Below, one piece after another: positions 1-57,505 of a DNA stretch of 64,000 nt. Numbering within the stretch: position 1 is the first letter of the stretch; every line of letters starts with the position of its first letter. The DNA is from Hydrogenophaga sp. (GTDB lineage: Bacteria > Pseudomonadota > Gammaproteobacteria > Burkholderiales > Burkholderiaceae_C): positions 49,865 to 113,864 of the forward strand of contig NZ_JAUCZF010000008.1 in NCBI RefSeq assembly GCF_030373245.1, read 5' to 3'. The notes beneath the pieces were generated by a model that saw only the letters and a list, made by a program, of their open reading frames with translations, was not told where the DNA came from and did not search any database. The translations under genes were made by a program, and so were the position numbers.

Positions 1-582
1 GGCAGCCTGGACCTGGCGCTCATCAAGCGGCTCATGCCCTCGGTGATCGTGGGTGTGCTGGCCGGTTCGATCGCCAGTCGCTACCTCAGCGGTTCGGTGC
101 TCACCGCGGTGTTCGCCACGGTGGCGCTGGTGGTGGCGTTGAACATGGCATTCAAGCGCGAGGGCTTTGCACTTGCCGATGGCCTGCCGGGCCCGGTAGG
201 CACCTCGTTGCTGGGGGGTGGTATTGGTGGCATCTCGACGCTCATGGGCATCGGGGGCGGCACCCTGAGCGTGCCCATCCTCAACGCTTTGCGCGTGCCT
301 ATGCACACCGCTGTGGGAACGGGCGCCATGCTGGGCATGGTGATCAGCTTCCCTGGCGCGCTGGCGTTTTTGATCAACGGCCTGGGTGTGGCCAACCGAC
401 CGCCCGCGAGCCTGGGCTATGTGAACCTGCTGGGCATGGCCATGATCGTTCCCGCCACCATGGCCACCACCGGCTGGGGTGCGAAGCTCGCCCATGCCAT
501 CGACGCGCGCCGCCTGCGGCAGGTGTTCGCCGCCTTTCTCGCGCTCACCTCGCTGCGCATGTTTTACGGCCTGCTGCACTGA
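1..582 (+). CDS. Sulfite exporter TauE/SafE family membrane protein (5'-truncated by window)
   Basis: Frame is open from base 1. Hydrophobic helices with the TauE-type motifs GGISTLMGIGGGTLSVP and MHTAVGT. Confidence 0.8.
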   Translation, partial: GSLDLALIKRLMPSVIVGVLAGSIASRYLSGSVLTAVFATVALVVALNMAFKREGFALADGLPGPVGTSLLGGGIGGISTLMGIGGGTLSVPILNALRVPMHTAVGTGAMLGMVISFPGALAFLINGLGVANRPPASLGYVNLLGMAMIVPATMATTGWGAKLAHAIDARRLRQVFAAFLALTSLRMFYGLLH

Positions 583-2307: not shown

Positions 2308-2601
2308 ATGGCGCTGAGCTACCTCATCTTCGACGCCAGCGACGACGGCGAAGGCACGGGCAGCTGGGAGGCGATGGCCAGCGTGCGCGCCAGCGCACTG
2401 CCCGAGGTGATGGCCGAGGTGGCCTCGGTGATGTCCGCGGCGCAAACCGATGCCCCTGGACCACGCGGCGCGCTGGACGAAGGCGGCGCGTGGGACGCCG
2501 AGCATCAGGTGCAGGGCGACGGCGACTGGACCACCGTGACGCTGACGATCACCGGGCCTTGGGAGTGGGGCGAGGCGCTGGTGGAGCGCTTCGCCGACTG
2601 A
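2308..2601 (+). CDS. Small acidic hypothetical protein (97 aa)
   Basis: ATG 23 nt after the GGT stop, GC3-rich codons, sequence MALSYLIFDASDDGEGTGSWEAMASV. Confidence 0.7.
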   Translation: MALSYLIFDASDDGEGTGSWEAMASVRASALPEVMAEVASVMSAAQTDAPGPRGALDEGGAWDAEHQVQGDGDWTTVTLTITGPWEWGEALVERFAD

Positions 2602-2608
2602 CGCGCAG

Positions 2609-3436
2609 TCAGCAGCCCTTGAACACCGCCGCCCGCTTCTCGCGGAAGGAAGCCACGCCCTCTTTCGCATCGTCGCTCTGCGCCAGGCGTTGCTGCACCG
2701 CTTCAAACTCGCCCTGCGCCACGATGGGACCTTGTTCGACCGCGAGCACGGCGCTGCGCCGGGTTTCGATCACCGCGAGCGGCGCCTGCTCGGCAATGGT
2801 CTGTGCGATGCGAAGCGCTTCTTCCAGCTCGGTGCCGGCGGGCACGACACGCTGCACGAAGTTGAGCCTCATCGCCTCGGCGCTGCCGAACTCGTCGCCG
2901 GTGAGCAGGTGCAGCAAGGCGTTGCCCAGGCCCGCGCGCTCGGCCATGCGCAGCGTGGCGCCTCCGGTGGCCATGATGCCGCGCTTGACCTCGAGCTGGG
3001 AGAAGCGGCAGTCGTCCGCAGCCACCACGATATCGGCGGCGAGCATGAGCTCGATGCCCAGCGTGAAGGTGATGCCCTTGACCGCGACCACCAGGGGCTT
3101 GACGCGTCGGCGCCAGCGCGCGTCACCCAGGTCCACCGGGTCGACCCAGCCCTCGGGCACGGGCGATTCGCCGCGCTGCATCAGCGGCGCAAAACTGGGC
3201 AGGTCGAGCCCGGCGGTGAAGTGGTCTCCCTGGGCGTGCAGCAGGCCGACGCGCAGGCCTGGGTCGTCGTCCAGCCGGGTATACGCCTCGGCCAGGGCGC
3301 GCAGCATGGCGGGCGTGAATCCGTTGCGCTTGGAGGGCCGGTCGATACCGATCAGCAGCACACCGCCGCGTTGCTCGAAGGTGATGCGGCCCTCAGAGGG
3401 GTTGAGGTTGGCGCTGGGGTTCATGGCAGTCATCAT
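2609..3436 (-). CDS. Enoyl-CoA hydratase/isomerase (crotonase) family protein
   Basis: Motifs IDRPSKRNGF, HFTAGLDL, GIELMLAADIVVA and EVKRGIMATGG. Start uncertain (3448, 3436 or 3424). Confidence 0.9.
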   Translation of the reverse strand: MMTAMNPSANLNPSEGRITFEQRGGVLLIGIDRPSKRNGFTPAMLRALAEAYTRLDDDPGLRVGLLHAQGDHFTAGLDLPSFAPLMQRGESPVPEGWVDPVDLGDARWRRRVKPLVVAVKGITFTLGIELMLAADIVVAADDCRFSQLEVKRGIMATGGATLRMAERAGLGNALLHLLTGDEFGSAEAMRLNFVQRVVPAGTELEEALRIAQTIAEQAPLAVIETRRSAVLAVEQGPIVAQGEFEAVQQRLAQSDDAKEGVASFREKRAAVFKGC

Positions 3437-34469: not shown

Positions 34470-34534
34470 GATTTTGAGCCGCCTTGCACTGTACCCCCGC
34501 GCTGGCAGCGCCTCTGTCACAAGGTCTCAGCCCC

Positions 34535-35800
34535 GTGTCTCTCGATACCCTGATCTCGCGCAACCTGCTCGACACGGGGGCACCAGCCCCGCCCGACGGC
34601 GCCTGCGCCCTGGTGCTGATGGGGGGTGGTGCGCGCACCGCCTACCAGGCTGGCGTGCTCAAGGCGCTGGCCACGATGCTCGCCGCCCAAAGCCCGGGTG
34701 TGCAGGCCCCGCCGCCGTTTCCCTTTCGCTGGCTGTTTGGCACCTCGGCCGGCGCCCTCAACGCAAGTTACCTCGCGGGCTGCAGCGCCGCGGGCCTGCA
34801 AGCCCTGCCGCAGCTCGCCACGTTCTGGTCCGCGCTGCGCTCCGAGCGGGTATACCAGCTCGACGCGCCAAGCTGGGTGCGTGCCCATCGGCTGGTCGCC
34901 GGCCTGACGCTGGCGCGCCAGGTACGCCGCCACCGCGCGCTGCTCGACACCCTGCCGCTGGTGGACACGCTGCACCGCGCAATCAACCTGCCGGCTGTGG
35001 AGCAAGCTCTGACGCAGCAGCACATCGAGGTGCTCGGGGTCACGGCGTCAAGCTACACCACGGGAGAACACTGGACCTTTTGCCAGACCCGCACGGACCA
35101 TCCCGTCAAACCCTGGCAACGTCCCGGCCGCCGCGCGGCCTACCAGCCCATCACCATCGAGCACCTCATGGCCTCCAGCGCCATCCCGTTCCTGTTTCCG
35201 GCCGTGCCGCTCTGGGTCGACGGCCACAAGGAATATTTTGGCGACGGCTCGATGCGCCAGCTCTCACCGCTGTCGCCAGCCATTCATTTCGGCGCGCGGC
35301 GCATTCTGGTGATCGGCGTGGCACAGCCCCAGCGCGCCGGCATGGGCGTGCGTACCAACAACGAACCGACCGCCGGCACCATCGCTGGCCATGCCATGGC
35401 CAGCGTGTTCCACGACACCCTGCAATCCGACGTGGAGCAGGCGCAGCGTGTGAGCCAGACCCTGGCCAAGCTGCCGGCGGCCCTGGCTGCTGCCCTGCCC
35501 TACCACCCGGTGAACGTGATGGCCATCCAGCCCAGCTTCTCGCTTGACGAGCTGGCGCACAAACACATTGGCAGCTTACCCGCCGCCACCCGCAACACCC
35601 TCACCGGCCTGGGCGCGCTCGACCCGAGTCGCGGTGCCGCCGGTAGCGCCGCGTCGCTGGCCAGCTACCTGCTGTTCGAGTCCGATTTCATCCAGGCGCT
35701 GATCGAACTCGGTGAGGGTGACGCCTGGCGCCGCAAGGACGAACTGATGGCGTTTTTCGAGCCGTCCCCTCGCCTGGCCACCCACCCTGCGGTGACATAA
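34535..35800 (+). CDS. Patatin-like phospholipase
   Basis: GGGART oxyanion hole, GTSAG nucleophile, FGDG. Start uncertain. Confidence 0.88.
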   Translation: MSLDTLISRNLLDTGAPAPPDGACALVLMGGGARTAYQAGVLKALATMLAAQSPGVQAPPPFPFRWLFGTSAGALNASYLAGCSAAGLQALPQLATFWSALRSERVYQLDAPSWVRAHRLVAGLTLARQVRRHRALLDTLPLVDTLHRAINLPAVEQALTQQHIEVLGVTASSYTTGEHWTFCQTRTDHPVKPWQRPGRRAAYQPITIEHLMASSAIPFLFPAVPLWVDGHKEYFGDGSMRQLSPLSPAIHFGARRILVIGVAQPQRAGMGVRTNNEPTAGTIAGHAMASVFHDTLQSDVEQAQRVSQTLAKLPAALAAALPYHPVNVMAIQPSFSLDELAHKHIGSLPAATRNTLTGLGALDPSRGAAGSAASLASYLLFESDFIQALIELGEGDAWRRKDELMAFFEPSPRLATHPAVT

Positions 35801-35801
35801 T
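35793..35801 (+). promoter_or_regulatory. Candidate extended -10 promoter (TG-A-CATAAT) for the corA leader
   Basis: Overlaps the patatin stop and lies about 200 nt upstream of the corA ATG. Confidence 0.45.
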
Positions 35802-35829
35802 CTTCCTCTATCTTCCCCACGGAGCCCCC

Positions 35830-35883
35830 ATGGACAGCACGCCTCCCAGTTGCGTGCTTTCAGCCCCTGTGCCATCGGCTTGA
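35830..35883 (+). CDS. Putative corA leader peptide MDSTPPSCVLSAPVPSA (17 aa, 4 Pro)
   Basis: GGAG at 35821-35824, ATG at 35830, TGA at 35881. Contains one arm of the leader's alternative stems. Confidence 0.5.
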   Translation: MDSTPPSCVLSAPVPSA

Positions 35884-36003
35884 ACGCCGCCTTTGCGGCG
35901 ACACCTGCACCGGTGTCATGTCCGGCTGAAAGCGCACCATTCCGCTCAACGCTGGGCCGCAGAGCCCAGCCCCTTTCAGACCACCGCCTCCGGGAGCGCT
36001 ACC

Positions 36004-36990
36004 ATGCTCAACGTGTTCACCCTGGCCAATGGCCGCCTGTTCCAGGAAGAGATCGAATCGCTGGAAGCGCTGGCACGCGTCAAGCCGATCTGGGTTGACC
36101 TCGAGTCGCCCTCGCTGGAGGAACGGCGCTGGGTGAAGCAGCATTTTGGGCTGTCCATCCCCGAAGACGCGATGGACGACGATATCGAGGAGTCGGCCCG
36201 CTTCTTCGAAGAAGACAACGGCGAGCTGCACGTGCGCAGCGACTTCCTGATCGACGACCCCGATGACCCGCGCGCCATCCGCGTGGCGTTCATCCTCAAC
36301 GAGCACAACGACAAGCTCAAGAGCCAGGGCGTGCTGTTCTCTATACACGATGAAGACGTGCCGGTCTTTCGCCTGCTGCGCATGCGGGCGAGGCGCATGC
36401 CTGGCCTGATCGAAGACGCCAAAGACGTGCTGCTGATGCTTTTCGACGCCGATGCCGAGTACTGCGCCGATACGCTCGAGGACATCTACGACGACCTCGA
36501 AACCGTGAGCCGCCAGGTGCTGGCTGGTGACGTGACCGACAACAAGGCCGGCGAGGTGCTGGCCGCCATCGCGCGGCACGAGGACATGTCGGGCCGCATT
36601 CGCCGCAACGTGATGGACACGCGCCGCGCGGTCAGCTTCATGATGCGCAGCCGGCTGCTGAACACCGAGCAGTTCGAAGACGCGCGACAGATTCTTCGCG
36701 ACCTCGATTCGCTCGATGGCCATACCGCCTTTCTGTTCGACAAGATCAACTTCCTGATGGACGCCACGGTGGGTTTCATCAACATCAACCAGAACAAGAT
36801 CATCAAGATCTTCTCGGTGGCCAGCGTCGCACTGCTGCCCCCCACCCTGGTGGCCAGCCTGTACGGCATGAATTTCCGCTTCATGCCCGAACTCGAATGG
36901 CGGATGGGCTACCCGTTCGCGCTCGGGTTGATGGTGCTCTCCGCGCTGATCCCGGTGCTGTATTTCCGCAAGCGGGGATGGTTGAAGTAG
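36004..36990 (+). CDS. corA: Magnesium/cobalt transporter CorA
   Basis: LYGMNF signature and MPEL..GYP, two C-terminal TM helices. Confidence 0.95.
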   Translation: MLNVFTLANGRLFQEEIESLEALARVKPIWVDLESPSLEERRWVKQHFGLSIPEDAMDDDIEESARFFEEDNGELHVRSDFLIDDPDDPRAIRVAFILNEHNDKLKSQGVLFSIHDEDVPVFRLLRMRARRMPGLIEDAKDVLLMLFDADAEYCADTLEDIYDDLETVSRQVLAGDVTDNKAGEVLAAIARHEDMSGRIRRNVMDTRRAVSFMMRSRLLNTEQFEDARQILRDLDSLDGHTAFLFDKINFLMDATVGFININQNKIIKIFSVASVALLPPTLVASLYGMNFRFMPELEWRMGYPFALGLMVLSALIPVLYFRKRGWLK

Positions 36991-55963: not shown

Positions 55964-57505
55964 ATGTCAGAGGAAACCGAACTCAAGCTCAGCCTGCGCC
56001 GCCAGGACGTCCGCCGGTTGCTGGCCCATCCGCTGTTGCGCCAGCAAAAGCCGGCGCGCCAGCGCCTGGTCAACACCTATTTCGACACGCCCCAGCTCAC
56101 ACTCATGGGTCAGCGCATCGCTGTGCGCGAACGCCGCATCGGGCGCCGCACCTTGCTCACGGTGAAAACCGCCGGCAGCACCCAGGGCGGCGTCTCGCGC
56201 CGCGGCGAATGGGAAGGCCCGACCCGACCGGGTGAGATGGACTTTGCCAAGCTGGTGGACGATACCCAGCTGGCCCGGACACTGTCCAGCCTAACTGGGC
56301 AGTTGGTGCCCCTTTTTCGCAACGACTTTGTCCGGCTGAGCTGGGAGCTGGAGTACGCAGGCGCTCACATCGAAGTCGCGCTCGACCGGGGCCAGATCAC
56401 TGCCGGACACGCCTCCAGCCTGTCCCCTGACGCCGCTCAACGAGACATCCTGGAACTGGAACTGGAGCTGCAATCCGGGCCGGTGGAGGCGCTGCTGGAT
56501 CTGGCCCAAGCCCTGACCCAGGGACCCGACGGCAAGGCGAAGCGCGGTCTGTGGCTGTACCCGAGTGCGCGCAGCAAGGCCGAGCGGGGAATGGCCTTGT
56601 TTCTGGGCCAGCAGCCCGTGCCGATGAAGGCCGAGCCGGTGCCTCTTTGCGATCGGCTGTCTCGTACAGAGGCTTTCCGCACCATTGCCCTGGCCTGCCT
56701 GGTGCAGTGGCAGGCTCATGTTGCGCCCTGGCTGGAAGTCGAGGGAGACGCGCCAATAGACCCCGAGTTCGTGCACCAGGCCCGCGTGGCGCTTCGTCAG
56801 CTTCGCGCTGGTCTGCACCTGTTTGCGCCGGCCCTTCCTGCCCGTTTTGCCAGCCACTGGAATGCACGCTGGCAGCACGCTGCCAGGGCGCTCGGTGAGG
56901 CGCGCAACTGGGATGTGCTGGCCACCGAGGGCTGGGTCGACTGGCTGGGACCGATGGCAGATGACCCGGCGCTGCAACCTGTGCTCGCCTGGATTCAAGC
57001 GCAACGACAGCAGGCCAACCAGCGGGCTCGCGCCTGTCTGCACGAACCTGCCCATGCGCTGGACCTGCTCGCCTTCAGCCGGGCGGTGCTCGCGTGGCCC
57101 ACCGCGAAACGCCCACCGCGTTCCAAGTCGTTGTCCCGCTGGGCTTTGCGCCGGCTGCAACACCAGCATCGCCGGTTGCTGTTGAAGACCCGCAAGGCCT
57201 CCGGCAAAGGGACCAAAAGCCGCCATGCCCTGCGCGTGGCGCTCAAGAAGCAGCGTTACGCGCAAGAACTTCTCGGTGGCCTGCTGCCCAAGCGCTCTCG
57301 GCGCGACACTGCCCGCCTGGTCCAGGCGCAATCGCTGCTGGGCGAACTCAACGACCTGAGCACCGCACAGGCTTTGCTGGCCGACTGCCCGCTCGAGGAG
57401 GCAGCCGTGGTGCTCGCCAAGATCGATGCGCGACTGACGAGCCGGCTGCAGGGACTGAGAGCCGTGGAGCGGGCGCTGCTGAAGTCCCGTGCGCCAGGCG
57501 CCTGA
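55964..57505 (+). CDS. CYTH plus CHAD domain protein (inorganic triphosphatase YgiF-like)
   Basis: ExExK motif ETELKL, NTYFDTP, ELELEL. CHAD motifs VHQARVALRQLR, HALRVALKKQRY and LGELND. Confidence 0.88.
   Translation: MSEETELKLSLRRQDVRRLLAHPLLRQQKPARQRLVNTYFDTPQLTLMGQRIAVRERRIGRRTLLTVKTAGSTQGGVSRRGEWEGPTRPGEMDFAKLVDDTQLARTLSSLTGQLVPLFRNDFVRLSWELEYAGAHIEVALDRGQITAGHASSLSPDAAQRDILELELELQSGPVEALLDLAQALTQGPDGKAKRGLWLYPSARSKAERGMALFLGQQPVPMKAEPVPLCDRLSRTEAFRTIALACLVQWQAHVAPWLEVEGDAPIDPEFVHQARVALRQLRAGLHLFAPALPARFASHWNARWQHAARALGEARNWDVLATEGWVDWLGPMADDPALQPVLAWIQAQRQQANQRARACLHEPAHALDLLAFSRAVLAWPTAKRPPRSKSLSRWALRRLQHQHRRLLLKTRKASGKGTKSRHALRVALKKQRYAQELLGGLLPKRSRRDTARLVQAQSLLGELNDLSTAQALLADCPLEEAAVVLAKIDARLTSRLQGLRAVERALLKSRAPGA

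Follow-up and report, generated by a model that had tools for sequence, protein, structure and literature searches.

The Mg2+/Co2+ channel gene corA was long considered to be expressed constitutively, and its control by corL, a short upstream open reading frame (uORF), has been established only in Salmonella and Escherichia coli. How the enterobacterial system senses Mg2+ is debated, the two proposals being direct binding of the ion to RNA and translation of corL. The corL-corA leader of E. coli and Salmonella enterica was reportedly the subject of work by Kriner and Groisman in 2015 and 2017. We analyzed the region upstream of corA in a 64,000-nucleotide (nt) stretch of a Hydrogenophaga genome (assembly GCF_030373245.1, contig NZ_JAUCZF010000008.1, positions 49,865 to 113,864 of the forward strand), here called the window, and all coordinates below are window positions on the plus strand unless stated otherwise. 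The corA gene of the window (36004-36990; Pfam CorA, PF01544, E = 1.8e-52) encodes a protein with 46% identity to E. coli CorA, and a leader of about 196 nt (35808-36003) ends directly at it. We hold with high confidence that this leader is a real, translated, two-state cis-regulatory element, and it is probably a device of the corL kind.

The enterobacterial leader toggles between stems A+B, in which a Rho utilization (rut) site is exposed and Rho terminates transcription, and stems C+D (PMC11552253). Translation of corL is inversely tied to corA expression, the signal is intracellular Mg2+, and Rho is involved (Vezina Bedard et al. 2024, PMC11552253). The CorL N terminus is a conserved stretch with one proline, and corL is translated in E. 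coli (PMC11552253). The frame is ysgD (= corL, b4799) in the corA leader of E. coli K-12; it begins TTG GAC ACA CCC AGT AGA and reads MDTPSRYWLTILSSRINS. In that leader (our locus L091), GCC just 5' of the corL start pairs with GGC just 3' of the stop, and the same GGC region also pairs over 11 bp, as a hairpin, with a copy located downstream, GATAGCCTTAG. The GCC at nt 24-26, the GGC at nt 84-86, and the GCC at nt 105-107 are the positions that were mutated to define stems A and C (Kriner and Groisman, PMC5314796).

The leader in the window and its relatives share four conserved blocks, namely, the motif TGnCATAAT, the uORF, GGCTGAAAGC, and the Shine-Dalgarno (SD) sequence of corA. The first of these is an extended -10 promoter element, TGACATAAT, at 35793-35801, and a corA transcript start near 35807-35809 is predicted from it. 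TGnCATAAT or TGCGATAAT stands 37 to 40 nt 5' of the uORF start in all aligned leaders, and the sequence upstream of the element is unconserved. The uORF of 17 codons, MDSTPPSCVLSAPVPSA, starts at the ATG at 35830, which GGAG (35821-35824) precedes by 5 nt, and stops at the TGA at 35881-35883. The corA SD, GGGAG (35992-35996), lies 7 nt before the corA ATG and is kept as GGGAG or AGGAAG across leaders. The extended -10, the GGAG, and the uORF had been placed here by a preliminary description made from the letters of this DNA, and all were confirmed in the sequence; its broader picture, a conserved leader before corA with a promoter-like element and a translated-looking short frame among mutually exclusive stems, also holds. 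The minimum free energy (MFE) of the leader is -80.3 kcal/mol, compared with -66.2 ± 4.3 kcal/mol for shuffled sequences (z = -3.2), and none of 200 shuffles was equally stable.

Relatives were collected by a CorA search, which gave 30 loci from the same genus, and by an exact-pattern scan of named genomes, which gave at least 119 loci, 116 of them apparently genuine and three false. The uORF has the consensus M[DE]STPPS[CR]VLS[AV]x5 in 29 of the 30 Hydrogenophaga loci, and the peptide conserved across genera is M-[DE]-S-x-P-(P)-S-[R/C/W]. Among the matches listed from the pattern scan, the -10 element is present in 112 of 119 loci, an SD-like motif occurs at the matching spacing before the uORF in 108, and a corA start lies at most 450 nt downstream in 111. 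The uORF start codons in these matches are ATG (48), TTG (44), and GTG (26), with CTG never found in genuine leaders, and every leader has an in-frame stop after 7 to 18 codons. Differences in length are whole codons, Hydrogenophaga differing from the other genera by exactly one. Variation by codon position, again among the matches listed, is 9/2/62 over the first 10 codons and 2/2/33 in the six bases not constrained by the search pattern. Taken as sequence evidence, these patterns argue strongly that the uORF is translated.

The preliminary description had drawn attention to the proline codons, and here conservation gives a divided answer: the uORF and one Pro are kept across genera and the stems show compensatory changes, but Pro-Pro is confined to Hydrogenophaga with its 17-codon uORF. 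Other genera have one Pro and often a uORF of 7 codons. In 57 of 116 leaders among the matches listed, the frame stops right after residue 7, as in MESSPSR-TAG, and the VLS of the window peptide is therefore conserved as RNA, within segment 1 (see below), and not as peptide. Residue 7 (codon 8 in the window, 35851-35853) is Arg, Cys, or Trp and is always encoded by YGN. The Ser before it always has the rare codon AGT, in all leaders and in E. coli corL too, and all four nucleotides occur across leaders at the wobble base of the Pro codon.

Three short segments in and behind the uORF can form two helices. Segment 0 (35833-35842) covers uORF codons 2 to 5 (GACAGCACGC) and, with the general form GGAMAGCACR, is a near copy of segment 2. 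Segment 1 (35852-35865; uORF codons 8 to 12) contains GCTTTCAGCC (35856-35865), which is exactly reverse complementary to GGCTGAAAGC at 35924-35933, and its GCTTTC is nearly invariant. Segment 2, GGCTGAAAGCGC (35924-35935), lies about 60 nt 3' of segment 1. The first helix, P0, pairs uORF codons 2 to 5 with codons 8 to 11, its 3' strand being 35852-35861; the loop (35843-35851) contains what is left of the Pro-Pro codons together with the invariant Ser AGT and one base, the first, of the Cys codon, and the hairpin has an energy of -10.5 to -12.3 kcal/mol in the window. The second helix, P1, pairs codons 9 to 12 with GGCTGAAAGC over 12 bp (35854-35865 with 35924-35935; duplex energy, -23.0 kcal/mol). 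The perfect complementarity of segments 1 and 2 recorded in the preliminary description is thus confirmed, extends to 12 bp, and covaries across leaders. P0 and P1 are mutually exclusive because both use the segment 1 strand. Two variable hairpins within P1 (35885-35900 and 35900-35917) and one further downstream (35952-35969) make up the three small hairpins described previously, and all are found in the MFE fold. The region enclosed by P1 differs in length and sequence among genomes, and in the 7-codon variants it is a simple loop only.

Both helices are supported by covariation in an alignment of 56 leaders that was fitted to P1, has unambiguous core columns, and was counted per leader rather than by tree. 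P0 is paired at 92.5 to 93.8% across leaders, with compensatory pairs at 26:38 and 24:40. Pair 26:38 joins the wobble bases of codon 4 (G/A) and codon 8 (C/T) and is never mismatched, occurring as A-U in 14 cases, G-C in 12 to 13, and G-U in 2; pair 24:40 occurs as A-U, G-C, and U-A. P1 is paired at 93.4 to 96.5%, with compensatory double changes at 6 of its 12 pairs (56 leaders, 31 cells). None of 2,000 column shuffles reached the observed covariation for P0 or P1, and in three loci (L075 to L077) a single position has changed jointly in segments 0, 1, and 2. When the two states were enforced on 36 leaders, their mean energies were equal (-74.0 versus -74.0 kcal/mol). By these comparisons of sequence, the universally conserved switch is P0 versus P1.

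Segment 3, CTTTCAG (35973-35979), about 40 nt past segment 2, is an alternative partner of segment 2 and matches enterobacterial stem B. In the window, the 2:3 duplex has an energy of -13.4 kcal/mol, and a transcript ending at 35985 folds as P0 + 2:3 rather than P1. Stepwise folding, with each segment added in turn, runs from P0 to P1, then to P0 + 2:3, and back to P1 in the full leader. Across leaders, a complement of at least 5 nt to the segment 2 core is found downstream in 21 of 55 (~38%), with 3.8 expected, and a long 2:3 helix of up to 13 bp occurs only in six Hydrogenophaga genomes. As a universal alternative helix, 2:3 was rejected (mean z, +0.4 and -0.2), and it is a recurrent minority feature only. 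The preliminary description had made the ribosome's choice between 1:2 and 2:3 the switch; the window does have the 2:3 pairing, and with it the predicted fold flips, but the feature is limited to those 21 leaders, and the conserved rival of P1 is segment 0, through P0.

The likeness to corL extends from the peptide to the plan of the leader. The E. coli peptide begins M-D-T-P-S-R (MDTPSRYW...) and the peptides found here M-[DE]-S-x-P-S-R, as in MESTPSR at locus L037, with the codons CCC AGT in both and with one acidic residue and a single Pro in the N terminus. Both leaders are about 200 to 240 nt long and stand immediately before corA. In both, a 5' stem (A in E. coli; P0 here) contains the uORF, and the 3' strand of this stem can pair instead with a second version of the 5' strand located downstream (C; here P1); in E. 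coli and the 7-codon variants, the second helix starts at the stop codon of the uORF. Pyrimidine-rich tracts and the lack of an intrinsic terminator are also common to the two, and stem B has a counterpart, 2:3, in 21 of 55 leaders here. Since the CorL N-terminal motif and the layout are shared, the leader is of a known kind, and the word "analogous," used of it in the preliminary description, fits the likeness but understates it.

There are also differences. The helices are of unrelated sequence, GAAAGC/GCTTTC here and GCCTT/AAGGC in E. coli. The uORF has 7 to 18 codons here, usually with a strong ATG or an extended SD, compared with 18 codons and a TTG start in E. coli. The Arg codon is AGA in E. 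coli and a YGN codon here, and corL has a single Pro where the Hydrogenophaga leaders carry two. An equivalent of stem B is absent from most of the leaders studied here, and some lineages add an anti-SD sequence. The response to Mg2+ and Rho has been demonstrated for the enterobacterial leader only.

Other known systems are less similar. The mgtL-mgtA leader of enterobacteria (Rfam Mg_sensor) likewise encodes a leader peptide in which acidic and Pro residues stand close to the N terminus, it too has alternative stems, A+B versus C, and we liken the present leader to it as a system that controls an Mg2+ importer through the efficiency of uORF translation and Rho. MgtL is far richer in Pro (MEPDPTPLP...), however, and it controls a P-type ATPase under PhoPQ, not corA. 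The trp, his, leu, and thr attenuators likewise have four segments, among which the ribosome picks 1:2 + 3:4 or 2:3, comparable to 0:1 + 2:3 or 1:2 here, but this leader has no G+C-rich hairpin followed by a U tract, and its target is a channel gene rather than a biosynthetic operon. The window uORF has no tandem regulatory codons for one amino acid except Pro-Pro. In other phyla, the M-box (ykoK) precedes genes for Mg2+ transporters, corA and mgtE among them; it differs in having a large conserved aptamer, in place of which the core here appears to be a translated frame. The Rfam search proposed in the preliminary description, a cmscan of 35600-36200 against Rfam 15, returned no family at E ≤ 10, Mg_sensor and M-box included. 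The E. coli corA leader itself gave two sub-threshold matches in Rfam, both to unrelated families, and belongs to none.

A covariance model (R1) was built on 36 leaders after the pattern scan and was run over 401 genomes of the family; it matches 50 of the 401 genomes, in 31 of 201 genera. The inspection of new matches, directed at the higher-scoring ones, found all 19 directly preceding a corA that starts MLNVFTLANGRLFQEE. The leader occurs once per genome and was found only before corA. Genera among the matches listed from the pattern scan include Hydrogenophaga, Polaromonas, Macromonas, Malikia, Tepidimonas, Limnohabitans, Rhodoferax, and other Comamonadaceae. In two genomes from other families of the order (G045 and G041), the corA 5' untranslated regions are short and have no uORF. 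A degenerate pattern of the E. coli CorL type gave 13 matches, about the same as its reversed control, and all of them resembled coding sequence or chance.

Within the genus, the leader is present in 29 of the 30 loci, and the exception is L009 (G017:C46, ~2485-2700, minus strand), in a 2.2-Mb genome of the same genus, where the canonical leader is absent upstream of corA. That locus has instead a different frame of 15 codons, MPSKCPACKLAPQQK followed by a stop, with the palindrome GCAAGCTTGC, and model R1 gives no match to it. In a genus of the same family, locus L096 (G244:C1:4941543-4941913), with a CorA 75% identical, has a corA leader of ~330 nt whose uORF begins MDSDHPRRPSTP...; this start is related to the motif but diverged, and the model missed it. 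Locus L192, on a contig labeled 'Pantoea sp. 18069' (NZ_CACSJA010000028.1, 249-276, minus strand), carries a Comamonadaceae-type, single-Pro corA leader, and the contig probably comes from a contaminant or a mislabeled co-culture member. The window has, far from corA, a weak R1 match on the minus strand at 56885-56939 (20.2 bits, E = 0.0015), which is probably a G+C-rich hairpin or a repeat like the repetitive extragenic palindromic (REP) type and not a second leader.

The segment between the helices and corA bears on the output of the switch. Positions 35936-35991 form a C-rich, G-poor tract, a candidate Rho loading region by base composition, which contains the third of the small hairpins. 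Between segment 2 and the corA start codon, C makes up 46% and G 24% of the sequence in the window, and a tract of about 70 nt past segment 2 averages 47% C and 24% G and is C-rich and G-poor in all 55 leaders; the regions upstream of 20 other genes in the window average 34% C and 31% G. A scan for intrinsic terminators from 35400 to 36300 predicted none on the plus strand. Such a tract, combined with the absence of a terminator hairpin, favors Rho-dependent attenuation. Pairing of the G-rich flank of segment 2 with its C-rich flank was rejected as a further element: the energies are strong, but the mean z is -0.5; base composition accounts for them, and the pairing is not a defined helix.

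Together, these features suggest a corL-type corA leader in which translation of the uORF sets the choice between P0 + 2:3 and P1, a reading that we consider rather likely. The extended -10 promoter would start a leader of about 196 nt carrying a ribosome binding site (RBS) and the 17-codon uORF. P0 would form from codons 2 to 5 and 8 to 11, and its loop would contain the Pro-(Pro)-Ser codons. After synthesis of segment 2, segment 1 could re-pair with it to give P1, and 2:3 would be possible only without P1, so that the leader would toggle between P0 + 2:3 and P1. Ribosomes on the uORF would cover segments 0 and 1, and the efficiency of uORF translation would therefore decide the fold. We infer the signal, the direction of the response, and the part of Rho by analogy with corL-corA. 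On that analogy, when Mg2+ is sufficient, efficient translation of the uORF would cover segment 1 and leave segment 2 and the C-rich tract free, and Rho would then terminate before or early in corA; when Mg2+ is low, the acidic, proline-containing N terminus would be translated poorly, P1 would form, and corA would be expressed. Mg2+ as the signal is slightly more likely than not, and Rho as the output is a tentative proposal to which we give somewhat less than even weight.

Several observations weigh against this interpretation. Of 20 regions upstream of corA that were taken from other families of the class, none has the CorL motif. No nucleotide homology to the E. coli leader was detected with R1 (2.4 bits, E = 2.9, at the corL start), and the shared motif could thus be convergent; since the two leaders lack nucleotide similarity and their CorA proteins are only 46% identical, either common descent or convergence could account for the likeness. 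Most leaders are without segment 3, and half of all leaders, the GAC variants, have a C.U mismatch within P0. The YGN constraint at residue 7 looks like one at the nucleotide level rather than the peptide level. P1 sequesters only segment 2 and leaves the C-rich tract uncovered, and regulation could run in the opposite direction. The window's own assembly, which is 91% complete, has no match to Rho (Rho_RNA_bind, PF07497); the rho gene is probably in the missing 9%, and Rho was found in nine of nine other Hydrogenophaga genomes checked. Finally, 11 of 55 leaders (~20%) have a perfect anti-SD of 6 to 10 nt, and this points to translational control as a component, at the least, of the output in certain lineages.

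Because an anti-SD occurs in about one-fifth of leaders, translational control is a serious rival or an added layer. In this alternative, the sensor is the same (the uORF with P0 and P1), and the output is initiation of corA translation rather than termination of transcription: one fold would hide the corA RBS in an anti-SD or long-range helix and uORF translation or P1 would free it, and corA would then be coupled positively to translation of the uORF. At least seven clades contribute to the 11 anti-SD sequences, whose position is either in the interval from segment 1 to segment 2 or at the stop codon of the uORF; each has p ≤ 0.05, and their frequency is 20%, compared with 5% expected. Examples are CTTCCTGAAG:CTTCAGGAAG in L053 and CTCCCGG:CCGGGAG in L086, and in the helix between the uORF stop and the SD, the change between L033 and L037 is compensatory. 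They are missing in 80% of leaders, though, while the C-rich tract is universal, and the window has no conserved anti-SD partner for the corA SD, its longest Watson-Crick match being 4 nt (p = 1.0). A universal anti-SD inside P1 was rejected on these counts, being present in 20% of leaders and absent from the window. So was accessibility of the corA SD specific to one state, with predicted values alike and no consistent difference between P0 and P1 (0.38 versus 0.34).

The proline codons were examined in the same connection, as the preliminary description had found them nearly complementary to the corA RBS region. In the full-length MFE fold of the window, the Pro codons are indeed paired with GGGAG, through 5 contiguous pairs (CUCCC:GGGAG). 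That match needs a CCT wobble seen in about 6 of 29 members of the genus, and overall the pairing of Pro codons with the SD is at chance level (mean z, +0.1); Pro-Pro as a conserved anti-SD was rejected. All in all, we consider a translational output in place of termination to be unlikely, and a corL-type leader remains the preferred reading.

A second possibility is that the uORF senses a cue other than Mg2+, such as the status of prolyl-tRNA or elongation factor P (EF-P), translation capacity, or ribosome-targeting antibiotics, with an indirect link to corA. The conserved codons are indeed Pro and a wobble-decoded Ser AGT, the Pro-Pro of Hydrogenophaga is a classic EF-P-dependent motif, and Salmonella mgtL senses proline besides Mg2+ (summarized in PMC11552253). 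Most genera, however, have a single Pro, for which EF-P is not needed; intracellular Mg2+ is the cue for the enterobacterial counterpart (PMC11552253); and the element is placed once per genome and before corA alone. We regard the idea as quite improbable. That the frame is untranslated and only incidentally open in an RNA-only element (such as a metal riboswitch or a site for a protein or small RNA) is very improbable. In its favor, the AGT codon never varies, the residues at position 7 share a nucleotide pattern (YGN) and not an amino acid class, and AGC and GCTTTC are fixed through base pairing. Against it, starts are limited to ATG, GTG, and TTG behind a properly spaced SD, an in-frame stop always follows within 18 codons, indels are of whole codons with a third-position bias, E. 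coli uses AGA for the same Arg in a corL that is translated (PMC11552253), and no Rfam family was matched.

A corL-type leader was apparently undescribed outside enterobacteria until now, as full-text literature searches gave no account there of a corA leader or of corL. In this respect, the preliminary description, which had called the leader possibly undescribed, is borne out for these bacteria, although the device itself was already known as corL. The leader extends that device beyond enterobacteria, to at least 31 genera of Comamonadaceae, and introduces no new principle. It also supplies more than 100 natural variants, including minimal uORFs of 7 codons and compensatory changes in the helices, which point to the essential features: Glu or Asp at position 2, Pro, Ser (AGT), the YGN codon, and the triplet of segments 0, 1, and 2. 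For annotators, it offers a small open reading frame along with a model of the leader, neither of which Rfam contains. A more far-reaching idea, possible but rather doubtful, is that the nascent peptide M-[D/E]-x(1-2)-P-S-R is an ancient sensor, for Mg2+ or for translation capacity, that works inside the ribosome, and that the corA leaders of Burkholderiales and Enterobacterales share it by common descent. If this were true, the 7-codon versions (MESSPSR-stop, with the P1 hairpin at once after) would be the minimal working unit, and sensing would be confined to the first six peptide bonds and to termination, with no part played by the rest of CorL or by direct binding of Mg2+ to RNA.

The corA gene of the window is monocistronic, as the next gene is on the opposite strand. 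Immediately upstream of the leader is a patatin-like gene (34484-35800), and its TAA stop codon sits within the -10 hexamer CATAAT (35796-35801) of the corA promoter element.

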